From positions 221,849 through 285,848 of the forward strand of contig MGHG01000009.1 in the NCBI GenBank assembly GCA_001793095.1: a stretch of 64,000 nucleotides of DNA. The letters are read 5' to 3'. This document shows positions 2,439 through 47,048 of the stretch, one piece after another. Positions within the stretch are counted from its first letter, which is position 1. The number at the start of each line of letters is the position of its first letter. The notes below the pieces were generated by a model. That model did no database searches. It was not told where the DNA came from and was given only the letters and a program-made list of their open reading frames with translations. The translations under genes were made by a program, and so were the position numbers. This stretch comes from Candidatus Woesebacteria bacterium RIFCSPLOWO2_01_FULL_39_23 (GTDB lineage: Bacteria; Patescibacteriota; Microgenomatia; UBA8517).

Positions 2439-3560
2439 TTAAACTTTTATATTTATTAAGTCTACAAATTCTTTCTTAAAACGTCGTGTTGAAAATTTTT
2501 CAGCATTTTTAATTAATTTATCTCTATCAAATATCATTAAATTGAACGTGTTTACTGCATTACATAACGAATTCTTAGACTGCGTATCAAATAAAACTCC
2601 TGTTTCACTATTAATTACAGTGTCTGACGCGCCACCCTTCGCGTAAGCAATTACCGGACAACCTGCCGCTTGTGCTTCCACAGCCACTATCCCAAAGTCT
2701 TCTTCCTGGGGCATTATTAACGCCCTTGCCCCCCAATAAAGGGAAACTAACTCTTCATCGTCAACAAATCCCTTAAATATAATGTTCTTAAACTTATACT
2801 TAAACTTATACTTTTTCTCCTCACTACCCGTTCCGACAACTACAAGTGGCAAACCAAGCTCATTAAAAGCTTCAATTGCCAAATCCACTTTTTTGTACGG
2901 AACTAATCTCGAAACAATTAAGAAGTATCGTCTCTGCTTCACTACATCACTACGTAGTGATGTAGTATCAACAGATTTCCTTTGAAATTTCTCAATATCA
3001 ACGGGTGGATATATTATCTCTGAACCTCGGTTGTAATATTTTTTGATGCGATCCTGAACAGCAGTCGATATTGCTATCACCACATCTGGTCTTTGGGCGG
3101 CAATTTTATCCCACGATCTTAAATAAGTAACTACTGGTTTTGTTATCCCTTTCCAGCCAAAGGCTGGTCCGCCTCTGGCGGAAAAATAAGTGTCAAAGTG
3201 GCTCCACAAATATCGTGTGGGAGTTAAACAGTAACAAACGTGTAATGTTCCAGGTTTCGTAATTACTCCTTTTGCCGCTTCACTCGTGACAGATATGACA
3301 AGGTCGGACCTTGTCAAGTTAAGACTCTCAAAAGCTATGGGCATAAATGGGGCCAAATACTCATGTTTATCCCTTAAACATGGAATATTCTGCAAAAATG
3401 AAGGGATCACTTCAGGAAACACCTTAGCCCATGTTGCTTTTTCTGGCGAATAAACTGATGTATAAATCGGAGCGTCGGGAAATAATTCATGAAGGGTGAG
3501 AAGAACACGTTCTGCTCCTCCCCACTTGTTTACTCTGTCATAAACTATTGCTGTCTTCAT
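2439..3560 (-). CDS. Glycosyltransferase family 4 (GT-B, retaining)
   Basis: C-terminal E(D)FGIVAVEAQAAGCPVIA motif typical of Glycos_transf_1. It contains a perfect 26-bp palindrome and a 12-bp tandem duplication in-frame. Confidence 0.8.
   Translation of the reverse strand: MKTAIVYDRVNKWGGAERVLLTLHELFPDAPIYTSVYSPEKATWAKVFPEVIPSFLQNIPCLRDKHEYLAPFMPIAFESLNLTRSDLVISVTSEAAKGVITKPGTLHVCYCLTPTRYLWSHFDTYFSARGGPAFGWKGITKPVVTYLRSWDKIAAQRPDVVIAISTAVQDRIKKYYNRGSEIIYPPVDIEKFQRKSVDTTSLRSDVVKQRRYFLIVSRLVPYKKVDLAIEAFNELGLPLVVVGTGSEEKKYKFKYKFKNIIFKGFVDDEELVSLYWGARALIMPQEEDFGIVAVEAQAAGCPVIAYAKGGASDTVINSETGVLFDTQSKNSLCNAVNTFNLMIFDRDKLIKNAEKFSTRRFKKEFVDLINIKV
2787..2810. repeat. 12-bp in-frame tandem duplication (CTTAAACTTATA x2)
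   Basis: Seen directly in the sequence. It encodes KYKFKYKF in the GT4 protein and is followed by a partial third unit (CTT). Confidence 0.5.
2941..2966. repeat. Perfect 26-bp palindrome inside the GT4 coding sequence
   Basis: ACTACATCACTACGTAGTGATGTAGT is its own reverse complement. It encodes TTSLRSDVV on the minus strand and is related to the intergenic palindrome at 5362-5395. Confidence 0.6.
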
Positions 3561-20779: not shown

Positions 20780-22162
20780 TTATTTTGGCACGTATAGAGA
20801 GTAAATGCCCACTTTATCGACCTTTACATAATTTTCAGAAATATAGTTAGAAACTTTCAAAGGCTTATACGACCCCAATCCGCTTATGGCATAGTCACCC
20901 TCTACGATCAACTTCGGCCTATGCTCTTTAAAATCTTCAATCATGTTATCCTGAACCCCCGGGAGATCCATATACCATGGAAGGTAGGGAATGAGTGGTT
21001 TAGTTGCAGGAAGGGTGTCGGATAATGCGTATAAATTATCCCAGGCATTTGCGATATAAATGTCCGAACCGGGATATACTGAGTTATTAATAAAATCAGC
21101 AACTTCCACAATAGCCGGTTCGACAAACCGAGTGGGTTTGCTAAAATTTCGGTAAACAAATCTTCCAGCTAGTATCGAAATTGCTAATATATAAACATAT
21201 AACATAGCGTAATATTTATATGATTTAGTAGTTATTGTGTTTACAGTTACACTTCCTGCCAGTATTGCAAGAAAAGGTATGGCCGGCTGTAAATGAAAAT
21301 ATTCAAATCTCGGAAACGCTCCCAATATACCAGCTAATACCCATGCAAATAAGTTAAATTTATCTCTGTTTGCCTGAATTAAAAACGGAATTACGATTAT
21401 AAACGGAAAGAGAGTCACAACAATCTGGCGAAATGTCGGATAGGAAATCTGACCTGCTGCATTCGGCAGGTAAAATATTCCAAACTTAATCGTCCAATTA
21501 TAAATATCCGGCAATATATGTAGTAAATATATTAGAGATACAATAATTCCAGATATGCAGGTTGCACCGATAGCAAATTTCCTCATACCTTGCAAGGTCT
21601 CACCTTTAAAGGTTGATTCCTGCAAGGTAGATATTGTAATTGGTATCAGAAACCAAAAAGCTGTTTGCTTAGTTAAAAAAGCCAGTGTCCATATAAAACC
21701 TGCCCCCAAATAATGTTTTTTATTAAGCAAATAAAAAATCACAAGCGCTAAAGGCGCTAAGGCAAGATCAAACCATAAACCATTGCCCTCGTAAAGAATT
21801 TGAAGCGGAATATAGAACGTAAGTGCAAAAAGGGCTATTTTATTATTCCAAAGTTTTCTTGTTAGGTAATATAAAAGACAATCGGTGGCGAGTATCAAAA
21901 ACCAAGTATAAATTTTAAGTTGAATGACACCTACTCCAAATACTTTATAAAAAAGAGTCAAATCAACTATAAGTAAAGGTGTATGTGCAACTGCAATATC
22001 CCGATATGGCAACCAACCTTTAAGTATTAAGTACGGCCAGGCTAACATCTCCGGCCAGGCCGTAAATTTAACGCTCATGAGAAGAATCAGGTGAATAAAA
22101 ATCAGAATACAGAGAATGACGAATTTGTGTGTCAGCTCTTTTTTAATAACCCGTTCCACCAT
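20780..22162 (-). CDS. Polytopic membrane protein, putative GT-C glycosyltransferase. It carries an in-frame copy of the 24-nt transposon-associated hairpin repeat
   Basis: 460 aa with many TM helices and a C-terminal soluble domain. Nucleotides 21590-21613 match the IS-flanking 24-mer at 23 of 24 positions and encode STFKGETLQG in a loop. Confidence 0.4.
   Translation of the reverse strand: MVERVIKKELTHKFVILCILIFIHLILLMSVKFTAWPEMLAWPYLILKGWLPYRDIAVAHTPLLIVDLTLFYKVFGVGVIQLKIYTWFLILATDCLLYYLTRKLWNNKIALFALTFYIPLQILYEGNGLWFDLALAPLALVIFYLLNKKHYLGAGFIWTLAFLTKQTAFWFLIPITISTLQESTFKGETLQGMRKFAIGATCISGIIVSLIYLLHILPDIYNWTIKFGIFYLPNAAGQISYPTFRQIVVTLFPFIIVIPFLIQANRDKFNLFAWVLAGILGAFPRFEYFHLQPAIPFLAILAGSVTVNTITTKSYKYYAMLYVYILAISILAGRFVYRNFSKPTRFVEPAIVEVADFINNSVYPGSDIYIANAWDNLYALSDTLPATKPLIPYLPWYMDLPGVQDNMIEDFKEHRPKLIVEGDYAISGLGSYKPLKVSNYISENYVKVDKVGIYSLYVPK
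21590..21613. repeat. Solo copy of the IS-flanking 24-nt hairpin, embedded in-frame in a membrane-protein CDS
   Basis: TTGCAAGGTCTCACCTTTAAAGGT matches the copies at 44945 and 45665 at 23 of 24 positions and is flanked by CCTTGCAAGG / CCTGCAAGG. Confidence 0.55.
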
Positions 22163-44145: not shown

Positions 44146-44883
44146 CTAGATGGCACCCTCTTCTTTACCTTTGTAATCTGAAGGATATATCTCAATTTCT
44201 TCCTGAAAATCGTCGTTTTTCAATATTTCGACAAATTTTTTTGCAACCCACTCGGGCGTAAAATACGCTTTACCTTTTAGATTTTCTTCCTTCTTTTCCT
44301 CCAAAGTCATTGGCCCAAACTCAGTTAGCGTGCTCCCAAGTGCAATATGAATAAAATGGATATTAGTATTCTTAAACTCAGCCGCCAGTGACATTGTCAT
44401 ACCCCTAAGAGCATATTTTGTCGCGCAATAAACACTCCTGCATGCTGTCGGAATTTTTCCCATTCCTGAGCCGATATTGATAATCACCGATTTCTCGCTT
44501 TTTTTGAGAAGAGGTAAAAGGGATTTTGTTAAAAAGAAAGGCGCAGTAACATTTATTGCCATAGAATCCTGCCATTCTCGGTACTCAACGTCTTCAATGT
44601 TTTTGTATATACCAACTCCCGCCGCGTTTATCAAAATATCAATATGGTCATTCTCTTCAATTATCTTCTTACACAAATCTTCAGTTTCATCAACTCTTGT
44701 GAAGTCAAACGCATAGTATTTGTGACCTTGTCCTTGAAGTTTGGTTAACAGAAGTTCAAGTTTTTCACTCGTTCTGGCAATTAAAATAAGTTTTGCGCCG
44801 GCATTTGCCAATACCTGAGATAAGGCACTCCCAATCCCACCCGTTGCCCCTGTTAGTACTACTTTTTCGTCTTTCAAATCCAT
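44146..44883 (-). CDS. Short-chain dehydrogenase/reductase (SDR)
   Basis: VVLTGATGGIGSALSQVL (TGxxxGxG) and catalytic YCATKYAL (YxxxK). Confidence 0.85.
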   Translation of the reverse strand: MDLKDEKVVLTGATGGIGSALSQVLANAGAKLILIARTSEKLELLLTKLQGQGHKYYAFDFTRVDETEDLCKKIIEENDHIDILINAAGVGIYKNIEDVEYREWQDSMAINVTAPFFLTKSLLPLLKKSEKSVIINIGSGMGKIPTACRSVYCATKYALRGMTMSLAAEFKNTNIHFIHIALGSTLTEFGPMTLEEKKEENLKGKAYFTPEWVAKKFVEILKNDDFQEEIEIYPSDYKGKEEGAI

Positions 44884-44978
44884 AAATTATTTCTCGAAAA
44901 AACCCATACTTCCAGGATACCACCATCCTTCCCCCTTTTGAACCTTGTAAGGTCTCACCTTTAAAGGTAGCATAGAGT

Positions 44979-45659
44979 ATGCCTGCTAAAAATGTGGTAA
45001 AAACCTATATCAATAATGGCATCTATCATATTTACAACCGTGGTGTAGAAAAAAGAAAAATATTCCAAGATAAACAGGATTATAATATTTTTCTGAACTA
45101 TATTAAGGAATATTTAAGTCCGCCGCCTGATATAAGTCAGTTAAAAACTCAATTCATTTTGCAAGGTGAGACCTTTAAAGGTCTACGAAGGTTACCACGT
45201 AATTATTATAAAAAAATTACTCTGATAGCTTACTGTTTACTTCCAAACCACTTTCATCTATTAATAAACCAAAACTCCACAGATGACATGCAAGAATTTA
45301 TTAGATCACTTTGTACTAGATACTCAATATATTTCAATAAAAAATACGACAGAGTGGGCGGACTGTTTCAGGGTCCATATAAAGCTGTTATTGTTACTGA
45401 GGATAATTATTTGCTCCATCTAAGTCGATACATACACCTTAATCCAAAGGATTACACAAAAGATATTATTAACACTTATTCTTCTTATGCCGAATATATG
45501 GGCCTAAGGAGGACGGAATGGGTAAAACCAGATATTGTGCTGGGTTTTTTCAACAACCCAGCTACACAAGAACTTATCAAAACTAATAATTATCGAGATT
45601 TTGTGGAAAAATACATTAAAGATTCTGAAGCGATTCTAGGTAATATGACACTTGAATGA
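44979..45659 (+). CDS. tnpA: Y1 (HUH) transposase, IS200/IS605 TnpA / RAYT-like
   Basis: YHIYNRGVEKRKIF...YCLLPNHFHLLIN (HuH motif) ...GGLFQGPYKAVIV...LHLSRYIHLNP (catalytic Tyr region). It is the only plus-strand gene in a minus-strand block. Confidence 0.75.
   Translation: MPAKNVVKTYINNGIYHIYNRGVEKRKIFQDKQDYNIFLNYIKEYLSPPPDISQLKTQFILQGETFKGLRRLPRNYYKKITLIAYCLLPNHFHLLINQNSTDDMQEFIRSLCTRYSIYFNKKYDRVGGLFQGPYKAVIVTEDNYLLHLSRYIHLNPKDYTKDIINTYSSYAEYMGLRRTEWVKPDIVLGFFNNPATQELIKTNNYRDFVEKYIKDSEAILGNMTLE
45159..45182. repeat. Loop-flipped internal copy of the IS-flanking hairpin inside tnpA
   Basis: TTGCAAGGTGAGACCTTTAAAGGT is identical to the flanking 24-mer except that the central CTC is GAG and there is a T>C change at position 4. 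It encodes LQGETFKG. Confidence 0.5.
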
Positions 45660-45739
45660 TCTTATTGTAAGGTCTCACCTTTAAAGGTTAACTACTGCTT
45701 TATCTTTTAAACTCATTTTTTGAAACGACAACGCTAATT

Positions 45740-46072
45740 TCAATTTTTTGCTCCGAGGGGAAGTTTTTTTACTGCGACAACAAACCTGGCCGGGTACAGC
45801 TTTACAAGGTGTTTTATATATTCATCATTAAATTCCTGATAATTTTCCATATCAGTTAGAAAAACTTGTGCAAAGACAATATTTGAAGCATCTAATCCTG
45901 CATACTTTAACTCTACCAAAATATTATTCATTGTCTGAGATATTCTTTCCGCAATCATTCCTTCTAACACTTTCCCTCGGGGTGTAAATTCAATTTTTCC
46001 AGAAAAGAAAACCAAATCTTTTGTCTCGATAAATGGAGTAAATGGTAAATCTGCCATAGTTAGTTTAATCAA
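45740..46072 (-). CDS. RidA / YjgF / endoribonuclease L-PSP family protein
   Basis: FSGKIEF...ISQTMNNILVELKYAGLDASNIVFAQVFLTDMENYQEFNDEYIKHL..YPARFVVAVKKLPLGA matches the RidA fold motifs (SGQ-like start, PAR..V.V..LP C-terminus). Confidence 0.65.
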   Translation of the reverse strand: MIKLTMADLPFTPFIETKDLVFFSGKIEFTPRGKVLEGMIAERISQTMNNILVELKYAGLDASNIVFAQVFLTDMENYQEFNDEYIKHLVKLYPARFVVAVKKLPLGAKN

Positions 46073-47048
46073 CTCTGTTTTGAGGTTTACCTTTAGCTAA
46101 AGCGACAATATTATCTACCCAAATCTTATATAAATTTTCCAGAGCTTCTTTGGTATACCATGCAAACCCTTTAAAACCAACCGCATTTTCAAGTTTTGCC
46201 AGAGGTGTGTGAACTAAGTCTTCTCCTTCGTACACGTAAGTATCAACCTTTCCTGACTTCAAGGCTTGAGCCATCGCCTTCTCGCCAACCAACTCCCTAT
46301 CCACGGTATTTACAATAATTACACCTCTTTTCAATTTTGCAATTTCCGATTTTCCAATCATGTTATTATTTGATACCTCGTGAGTAGCATTCAAAGAAAT
46401 CATATCGGATTCTCTTAACAGCTGGTTTAAAGAAACCATCTTTACCCCTTTCATCTTTTTTGGAGATCGATTATAGGCAATAACATTCATGCCAATTCCA
46501 GTACCAAGCTCTGCAACTCTGCTTCCAATATTTCCCAAACCTATGATACCAAGAGTTTTACCTTTCAGTTCAAACCCCTGCACCAGTTCATATTTTCCTT
46601 TTTGAGTCTTTCTATCAGAAATAAAAATTCTCTTTGCTGCACCAAGAAGAAATACTATCGCCTGCTCTGCAACCGATTCTTTCGAGTAACCTGGAATATT
46701 ACTAACGGGAATTTTGTGTTTCTTACACCAATCCTAGTCAACCCAACCAAAAGAAGTTGTCGATAAACAAACTCCTTTTAAACCAGGTACAGATGCCATT
46801 ATTTTAGTTAACTTTTCTTTTGCTTTCTCAAAACCGCCCAGAGGATCAGGGTCTACACCTATAATATCTACGTCTTTAGCCATTTCTAATAACTTATTCT
46901 CCTGTAGTGCCTCTCTGGTTTTTGTGTAAGATACTTTACCGAGCGAGGATAGTTTTTTCTGAAGTTCGGGGGAGAAACTTGATTGAGGATTAAATATAAC
47001 TATCTTCATAATCGTACTATAGCACTCTAAATCAAAAAGTAAATGCAA
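46065..47048 (-). pseudogene. D-isomer-specific 2-hydroxyacid dehydrogenase (glycerate/phosphoglycerate-DH-like) interrupted by a single in-frame TAG
   Basis: N-terminal catalytic-domain fragment (46737-47048) and NAD-binding fragment (GKTLGIIGLGNIGSRVA, 46065-46733) are in the same frame, separated only by TAG at 46734-46736. Read-through gives a colinear protein of about 327 aa: ...SFGWVD*DWCKKHKIPVSNIPGYS... TAG is used as a genuine stop elsewhere, for example at 1339. Confidence 0.6.

Follow-up and report, generated by a model that had tools for sequence, protein, structure and literature searches.

A Y1/HUH enzyme gene and its companion DNA hairpins in Candidatus Woesebacteria: a probable REPtron-like unit

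In a 64,000-nt stretch of the genome of Candidatus Woesebacteria bacterium RIFCSPLOWO2_01_FULL_39_23 (contig MGHG01000009.1, positions 221,849 to 285,848; this whole stretch is called the window below), we analysed a gene of the Y1/HUH single-strand DNA nuclease/transposase family and the short repeats that accompany it. Gene and repeats probably constitute a REPtron-like unit, in which a Y1/HUH enzyme that is resident, single-copy and vertically inherited is accompanied by the short DNA hairpins cognate to it. The hairpin unit has the form (ACC)TTGCA-[AAGGN-loop-N'CCTT]-TTAAAGGT and is found 5' of the start codon, 3' of the stop codon, in frame within a lineage-specific insertion of the gene and, at low density, elsewhere. 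This reading is carried by a strong association of gene and hairpin among homologous loci, by covariation of the hairpin stem, and by the likeness of the copies within each genome.

The gene and its hairpins in the window

The unit and one distant copy occupy the following positions in the window:
44942..44968, + strand: upstream hairpin motif, ACC+TTGTAAGGTCTCACCTTTAAAGGT, with the inner hairpin AAGGT-CTC-ACCTT at 44949-44961
44979..45659, + strand: Y1/HUH single-strand DNA nuclease/transposase-family gene, 226 aa (Pfam Y1_Tnp)
45159..45182, + strand: intragenic motif copy TTGCAAGGTGAGACCTTTAAAGGT, in frame, coding for L61-Q-G-E-T-F-K-G68
45665..45688, + strand: downstream 24-mer copy, direct orientation, starting 5 nt past the TGA stop
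21585..21631, no strand assigned: dispersed copy, with the 24-mer TTGCAAGGTCTCACCTTTAAAGGT at 21590-21613 within a 47-nt palindromic segment

As the original prediction stated, two identical direct 24-mers bracket the gene: exact copies of TTGTAAGGTCTCACCTTTAAAGGT stand on the + strand at 44945-44968 and 45665-45688, and no such exact pair is expected by chance (0 in 100 dinucleotide-preserving shuffles). The upstream copy is extended at its 5' side to ACCTTGTAAGGTCTCACCTTTAAAGGT (44942-44968) and its 3' end lies 10 nt ahead of the ATG of the HUH gene; as DNA it folds into a two-tier structure (-6.3 kcal/mol, z=-2.7), and an outer ACCTT/AAGGT stem is also possible. The core ACCTTTAAAGGT was counted four times in the window against 0.26 expected, and besides the flanking pair there are two copies of the AAGGT-NNN-ACCTTTAAAGGT core. 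In the intragenic one (45159-45182) the stem is unchanged and the 3-nt loop is inverted (GAG vs CTC). The other (21590-21613), 23 kb from the HUH gene and with one mismatch to the 24-mer, stands in frame (TFKGETLQ, minus strand) in the gene 20780-22162 (-) for a 460-aa GT39/PMT_2-like membrane protein; the 47-nt segment around it folds at -11.3 kcal/mol (z=-5.2), and alignments show that the protein loop holding the hairpin varies in length between orthologues. REP-like peptide words (REP, repetitive extragenic palindromic) were seen in 48 of 121 GT39 orthologues, a crude count that is suggestive only, and in the orthologue P0170, from the genome of locus L121 (L numbers denote our loci), that genome's hairpin was not in the same loop.

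The window also contains a different perfect hairpin, GACAAGGT-CGG-ACCTTGTC, at 3293-3317, with an 8-bp stem and in frame (LTRSDLVI) in a GT4 glycosyltransferase gene on the minus strand (2439-3560). Similar hairpins, TGACAAGGT-nnn-ACCTTGTCA, flank other HUH family members (e.g. L055 and L094).

The Y1/HUH catalytic set of the 226-aa protein is intact, which bears out another part of the original prediction. The protein matches Pfam Y1_Tnp with E=8.9e-10, its HuH motif N90-H91-F92-H93 is encoded at 45246-45257, the catalytic tyrosine is Y151 (45429-45431) within R150-Y151-I-H-L-N-P, and the residues of NHFH and RYIHLNP are invariant in an alignment of 25 homologue sequences; an FQ motif is present within GGLFQG. 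A 29-aa insertion at aa 47-76 is family-specific, is located at the surface, and contains the intragenic DNA hairpin exactly. Beyond the Tyr motif the protein has a proximal C-terminal tail and lacks a helix-turn-helix (HTH); Pfam gave no match to the C-terminal 71 aa (aa 156-226) even at E<=10. Because a sequence search of the PDB gave marginal matches only (ISDra2, E=0.08), a fold search was needed, and for this an AlphaFold (AF2) model was used, with a mean pLDDT of 71.8 and residues 56-69 predicted as a beta-hairpin. Foldseek matched the model to ISDra2 TnpA, IS608 TnpA, IS200 and E. coli TnpAREP 4er8 (E=5.9e-4), the PDB fold matches being 2xo6, 4er8 and 2vju.

Association, covariation and concerted change across the family

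Eighty homologous loci were taken from metagenomes by protein similarity. The association set comprised 72 family genes with usable flanks, from the protein-ascertained loci, from homologues at the loci of a DNA scan and from the window, and the controls were 179 open reading frames (ORFs) of similar size in the same loci; flanks were 120 nt long and a repeat was an exact match of >=13 nt. The frequencies of such repeats were as follows:
Repeat common to both 120-nt flanks: family 65% (n=72), controls 1.7% (n=179)
Repeat common to a flank and the gene body: family 60% (n=72), controls 3.4% (n=179)
Either repeat type: family 85% (n=72), controls 5% (n=179)

In every case the repeat of a family gene was a short hairpin whose stem measures 5-15 bp and whose loop is usually 3 nt, and at the level of the family its core is AAGG-N-loop-N'-CCTT. 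Across the family the upstream hairpin ends at a median of ~24 nt 5' of the ATG and the downstream hairpin begins at a median of 10 nt past the stop; a motif-to-ATG spacing of 10-11 nt recurs in L001, L041, L044, L124 and L127. Intragenic copies cluster at aa ~52-63, ahead of the HuH strand as in the window, at aa ~148-171, after the Tyr motif, and at the C-terminal end, and many homologues carry theirs at the same protein position as the window gene.

Covariation was assessed in an alignment of 29 copies of the 24-nt unit from 11 protein-ascertained loci. Columns 5-9 with 13-17 (AAGGT-NNN-ACCTT) pair in 96.6% of cells, and the closing pair is A-T in 11 copies, G-C in 7 and T-A in 7, a score reached by 0 of 500 shuffles; L130 contributes a fourth type, C-G. 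Covariation thus backs the proposal that the repeat forms a hairpin of the kind used by HUH enzymes. The original prediction had gone further and envisaged two mutually exclusive hairpins, of which only this one stood: for the second, 'switch' hairpin ACCT-TTAA-AGGT the outer pair is present in 10 of the 29 copies, scores equal those of shuffles, and pairs 14-23, 15-22 and 16-21 are uninformative because they are invariant, so that this candidate was rejected. The 5' (ACC)TTGCA and 3' TT[AC]AAGGT segments act as conserved sequence. Among the sense-strand mismatches of the 29 copies, six are G-T and one is A-C, an excess that gives a weak hint that it is the sense strand that folds.

In the intragenic copies the closing pair is formed by base 3 of a Gly codon and base 1 of the second codon after it, in these combinations:
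GGT..ACC: Gly..Thr
GGA..TCC: Gly..Ser
GGG..CCC: Gly..Pro
GGC..GCC: Gly..Ala
Judged by eye from the sequences, the pair is kept in 13 of the 15 intragenic copies available as DNA. Since it is kept while the encoded residue changes, the constraint is on the nucleic acid and not on the peptide.

The copies also change in concert. Within a locus, copies differ at 2.0 of 24 positions; between loci the figure is 6.0 of 24, and 0 of 2000 permutations gave a value as low; the hairpin sequence thus varies between genomes and is the same among the copies of one genome. In L044 and L046 the intragenic copy equals the upstream copy over 27-28 nt. Loop inversions are common between copies of one genome.

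Copies are dispersed in other genomes as well. A scan with AAGGT-SWS-ACCTTTAAAGGT, one genome per species, found 2-5 loci in each of several metagenome-assembled genomes (MAGs) of Patescibacteria, and in the scanned MAGs the loop triplet was genome-specific (CTC/GAG, GTC/GAC or CAG/CTG). Within 549 kb of protein-ascertained loci there were 13 exact locus-specific 13-mers away from the gene neighbourhood, against a chance expectation of ~0.1 by our own estimate, made with no tool. Many dispersed copies lie in frame in long ORFs, where they encode peptides such as PLKVxPLKV and TFKGxTFKG. Single matches of the 20-mer outside the Candidate Phyla Radiation (CPR), in Methanobacterium, Bordetella, Sedimentibacter and others, were judged to be chance coding matches.

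Three sets of dispersed copies are recorded here as separate observations. At L011 3658-3684, L012 6100-6126 and L022 2538-2564, ACCTTTAAAGGT-NNN-ACCTTTAAAGGT stands in frame (RPLKVxPLKV) in an orthologous protein of ~470-490 aa (AGFFFExPK..EALE..WNHD) from three MAGs, each with its own loop triplet; the site being the same in all three, the repeat is conserved at an orthologous intragenic position. Ca. Gottesmanbacteria JACREP01 (L004, L005, L010 and L036) has motif doublets 42 nt apart, with the same flanks and alternating loops (CTC followed by GAG, or GAG by CTC). The pairing is REPIN-like, except that inversion affects the hairpin core alone and not the unit as a whole; in L036 there is also a second doublet, with another loop pair (TCA/TGA). 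Several MAGs labelled 'uncultured Gammaproteobacteria' (CAYSOR01, CAYNWD01, CAYHHA01 and others) carry the Patescibacteria-type motif at several loci, and L033, from such a MAG, encodes a homologue of the HUH family; we doubt the taxonomic labelling of these bins.

Hairpin binding on single-stranded DNA is established biochemistry for the Y1 enzymes IS608, ISDra2 and E. coli TnpAREP. By analogy with these, a dimeric enzyme would bind the hairpin folded in single-stranded DNA, such as that at replication forks, and would cleave beside it through Tyr151 with a HuH-bound metal, after which the ends would be rejoined. Occasional strand transfer between copies would spread the hairpins, preferentially in cis, and keep them alike. 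Such transfer would explain why a stem/loop variant is shared within a genome and differs between genomes, and exchange mostly in cis would explain why hairpins are concentrated within and next to the gene for the enzyme. What we infer is the binding, the cleavage, the strand involved and any host benefit. More speculatively, the upstream copy's 3' arm, AAAGGT, may also serve as a ribosome-binding site, as the constant 10-11 nt spacing to the ATG weakly suggests, and this would allow autoregulation.

Enzyme class, inheritance and competing explanations

Homologues number >7,900, nearly all of them ~226-230 aa long and from MAGs of Woesebacteria, Gottesmanbacteria and other Microgenomates/Patescibacteria; when representatives at 50% identity were searched exhaustively, 389 clusters passed E<=1e-30 and 7,692 passed E<=1e-10. 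Many close relatives (43-51% identity over aa 1-217) are 350-450 aa long and therefore have an extra C-terminal region of 130-220 aa. Outside the CPR, the nearest relatives are genes carried on plasmids of Legionella and Sporomusa (28-30% identity), which combine Y1_Tnp with Bac_DnaA_C, a DnaA_C-like HTH; L136 and L137 have the HTH. In alignment with the Legionella and Sporomusa proteins the proximal C-terminal domain is common to both, the distal HTH is absent from the window protein, and the 29-aa insertion (aa 47-76) is missing from the relatives.

TnpA-Y1 proteins of subclass 2.1 carry the signature NH[YF]H / FQ / Y[IV]HLNP (PMC6006769), and the NHFH, FQ and YIHLNP of the window protein agree with it as given there. 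Subclass 2.1 (PMC6006769) corresponds to RAYT Group 1 (PMC5581495) and to most TIRYTs (PMC3733652). IS200 transposases belong to subclass 1.1, are ~150 aa long and have D-H-[VI]-H and Y-x3-Q (PMC6006769, Table 1), and the Tyr motif of the window protein is Y-x3-NP, of class 2 or TnpAREP type, not Y-x3-Q. The protein thus combines the HuH motif, the Tyr motif Y-x3-NP and the Y1 fold that mark a RAYT, and from its sequence it is best read as a class 2 Y1 enzyme of TnpAREP/RAYT type, nearest to Quentin subclass 2.1 (Bertels Group 1), without the distal HTH.

The genomic setting points to long residence. The HUH gene is the sole + strand gene within a long minus-strand cluster of glycosylation genes, and ORFs and Pfam confirm the position that the original prediction gave for it, between these neighbours:
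44146-44883, - strand: SDR gene, left neighbour
45740-46072, - strand: RidA/L-PSP gene, right neighbour

The identical protein is found on 24 contigs in one neighbourhood throughout. Orthologues occupy the same position and orientation, divergent from the SDR gene, in L121, L124-126, L127-129, L130-131 and the window; across these five syntenic loci the HUH proteins are 61-70% identical and the SDR proteins 41-70%, and the right-hand neighbour differs (RidA, a 154-aa protein, an aldo-keto reductase or a GT2). The gene is old and vertically inherited, because in five genomes orthologues of 61-70% identity share the site beside the SDR gene. The 64-kb window holds a single copy, with no second HUH gene, and the reading of the gene as single-copy and vertically inherited is based on the window and on 20-kb loci. 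The pattern is that of a vertically inherited gene under purifying selection and not of an active insertion sequence (IS).

Two loci hold two HUH paralogues, spaced 2-6 kb apart. Those of L106 (5226-5939, +, and 10860-11675, -) each have a distinct hairpin of their own, and those of L108 (7971-8675 and 10001-10702) both have the AGGACGGACCT hairpin type; some genomes therefore have more than one gene-hairpin pair. Also in the window, a D-2-hydroxyacid dehydrogenase gene (46065-47048, -) contains a single in-frame TAG at 46732-46734 (..GWVD*DWCKKHKIPVSNIPGY..) that splits it into ORFs of 104 aa and 172 aa, and its L121 orthologue is one 306-aa protein. The split gene could be a pseudogene, a sequencing error or a case of readthrough.

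Several findings weigh against a REPtron-like unit. The repeats lack the features of canonical REPs: the flanking copies are direct and not inverted, the 5' GT[AG]G tag or foot is absent, many copies are intragenic rather than extragenic, and copy number is low (dispersed density ~1 copy per 40 kb). The stems are short (5 bp here), the downstream copy folds at -2.4 kcal/mol, no better than shuffles, and the protein scores 40 bits with NCBIfam NF047646 (REP_Tyr_transpos), below the cut-off of 80. Moreover, the anatomy by itself would also fit an immobilised IS, because the ends of IS200/IS605 elements are likewise direct, near-identical subterminal hairpins. The gene is nevertheless flanked by cognate repeats that are also dispersed, at low density, as in a REPtron.

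The first alternative, which we consider unlikely, is a minimal IS200-like insertion sequence or cassette, either autonomous or immobilised in recent times, with the repeats as its left and right ends. A 720-nt single-stranded circle with one repeat would then be excised and reinserted at other 24-mers, such as that at 21590. In its favour, elements of the IS200/IS605 family carry similar subterminal hairpins on one strand at their two ends, and the model matched 2vju and 2xo6; the gene is alone on the + strand of a minus-strand cluster, the unit is bounded exactly by identical 24-mers with a solo 24-mer elsewhere, some SDR-orthologous loci lack the gene, and a few loci (L106 and L108) have two paralogues. 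Against it, position and orientation are kept in five genomes while HUH identity is only 61-70%, the identical protein always has the same neighbours with one copy in 64 kb, and the protein has Y-x3-NP rather than Y-x3-Q, with no tnpB present. The features of a subclass 1.1 protein were lacking, and so, in the window and in the loci read, were multiple identical copies at different sites. Excision would be self-destructive given the direct copy inside the gene, and yet this copy is conserved. Direct hairpins stand at both ends of the unit; as the two 24-mers are identical, no distinct left and right end can be defined.

The original prediction had called the unit a 'minimal IS200/IS605-like element' whose insertion breaks the operon, and it had suggested a check for empty sites. 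The first label is not supported, in view of the Y-x3-NP motif, the single neighbourhood on 24 contigs and the synteny in five genomes; as for the break, the position is old, which contradicts a recent insertion. Among SDR orthologues the check did turn up two loci without the HUH gene, L132/133 and L134/135, of which one holds a 233-aa secreted protein at that place and the other is an uninterrupted operon. No solo hairpin or footprint was found at these gene-less loci (L132 and L134), so that neither excision nor insertion is supported. The evidence favours instead the RAYT-like reading that had been kept as a fallback.

We regard it as still less likely that the hairpins are cis-acting RNA elements of the gene's transcript and not DNA substrates of the enzyme, the 5' copy sequestering the AAAGGT ribosome-binding site and the 3' copy stabilising or terminating the mRNA. 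The constant motif-ATG spacing of 10-11 nt in the closest subfamily, a downstream hairpin 0-20 nt past the stop in most loci, and the six G-U-type against one A-C-type pair of the sense strand, which suggest that this strand folds, all suit such a role. It leaves unexplained, however, the in-frame ORF copies at three recurrent positions, the dispersed copies of the same variant in unrelated genes and the tolerance of loop inversions, and there is no terminator-like T tract, promoter match or Rfam match: a promoter/terminator scan of 44700-45900 gave nothing at the repeats, and Rfam gave no match on 44600-46000.

That the repeats are unrelated to the enzyme, as generic palindromic repeats like the Rickettsia palindromic elements (RPEs) that spread otherwise and are merely tolerated, is hardly credible: copies do stand in frame in many unrelated genes, copy numbers are low and activity on the hairpins is putative, but the association is strong and specific (85% of family genes vs 5% of control ORFs in the same loci) and holds among loci with quite different hairpin sequences, and HUH/Y1 proteins are, to our knowledge, the one enzyme class known to act on such hairpins.

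Relation to known systems and implications

RAYT/REP systems are known mainly from Proteobacteria and Cyanobacteria, and, in the literature available to us, searches on RAYT or IS200 in CPR/Patescibacteria brought up no paper that connects RAYTs with the CPR. The closest parallel is the REPtron of E. coli (YafM/RayT, PDB 4ER8; Nunvar 2010, Bertels & Rainey 2011, Ton-Hoang 2012, Messing 2012), likewise a single-copy, vertically inherited class 2 Y1/HUH gene with Y-x3-NP that is flanked by its own genome-specific hairpin repeats, also found elsewhere, gene and repeats co-evolving. The present unit differs from it in having direct flanks rather than inverted pairs and no GT[AG]G foot, in its much shorter and AT-richer stems (core AAGG/CCTT), in numbering tens of copies and not hundreds, many of them intragenic, and in the protein, which has an extra 29-aa insertion and C-terminal tail and falls below the NCBIfam RAYT cut-off.

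With subclass 2.1/Group 1 the window protein shares the motif signature and a proximal C-terminal domain that aligns with the Legionella and Sporomusa proteins at 28-30%, whereas those carry a distal DnaA_C-like HTH (Bac_DnaA_C / HTH_23 / HTH_28-like) that is absent here. This is the largest RAYT group and is described as being without cognate hairpins; its members were reported to lack REP-like hairpins and to have, in some cases, only GGGGWSAS inverted repeats (PMC6006769, PMC5581495, PMC3733652). In the Patescibacteria family, by contrast, flanking hairpins are clear and the protein has the aa 47-76 insertion. Subclass 2.4 (RAYT Group 4; PMC6006769) is the only one for which REPs lying in frame within a tnpAREP gene have been reported, and there too the cognate palindrome stands in a peripheral region of the enzyme's own gene. 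In subclass 2.4, however, the insertion lies between the HuH and Tyr motifs and the REPs, in Cyanobacteria and Bacteroidetes, are long, 'double-foot' GTAG elements; here it lies ahead of the HuH strand, and in other subfamilies after the Tyr motif or at the C-end, and orthologues retain the intragenic copy, which changes in concert with the flanking ones.

The IS200/IS605 elements (IS200, IS608, ISDra2) have in common with the unit the Y1/HUH fold and same-strand subterminal hairpins, and IS200 is also ~700 bp long with tnpA alone; the IS200 TnpA of ~150 aa with Y-x3-Q, the multiple identical copies at varying sites and the frequent tnpB have no counterpart here. REPs and RPEs inside other genes are already known, and RPEs and intragenic REPs are similar in being short palindromes in frame in the loops of functional proteins; RPEs are 100-150 bp long and without a known cognate enzyme, whereas the units described here are ~24-47 nt and tied to an HUH gene.

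For annotation, the results are a warning that such "transposase" calls in CPR MAGs are no evidence of insertion sequences. They describe a very large Patescibacteria branch near Group 1 with a statistically strong gene-hairpin association, a covarying hairpin and concerted copies. A 226-aa enzyme with a 24-nt site would be a compact, tractable model of how domesticated HUH enzymes keep repeat families alike, and the system bears on the role of such enzymes in tiny genomes with almost no intergenic space.

Our broadest proposal is a tentative and somewhat doubtful one: that Patescibacteria of Microgenomates type possess an undescribed, phylum-wide HUH-plus-hairpin system whose repeats lie largely in coding sequences, and in which the enzyme's own reading frame keeps an in-frame copy of the target, translated as a beta-hairpin and evolving in concert with the flanking and dispersed copies. 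If the intragenic copy is functional, the protein sequence would be physically coupled to its DNA target, or the copy would be a built-in self-limiting or regulatory site. The proposal bears on whether palindrome insertions add to protein variation in CPR bacteria and, if true, would make the enzyme a driver of lineage-specific loop insertions in the proteins of reduced genomes.

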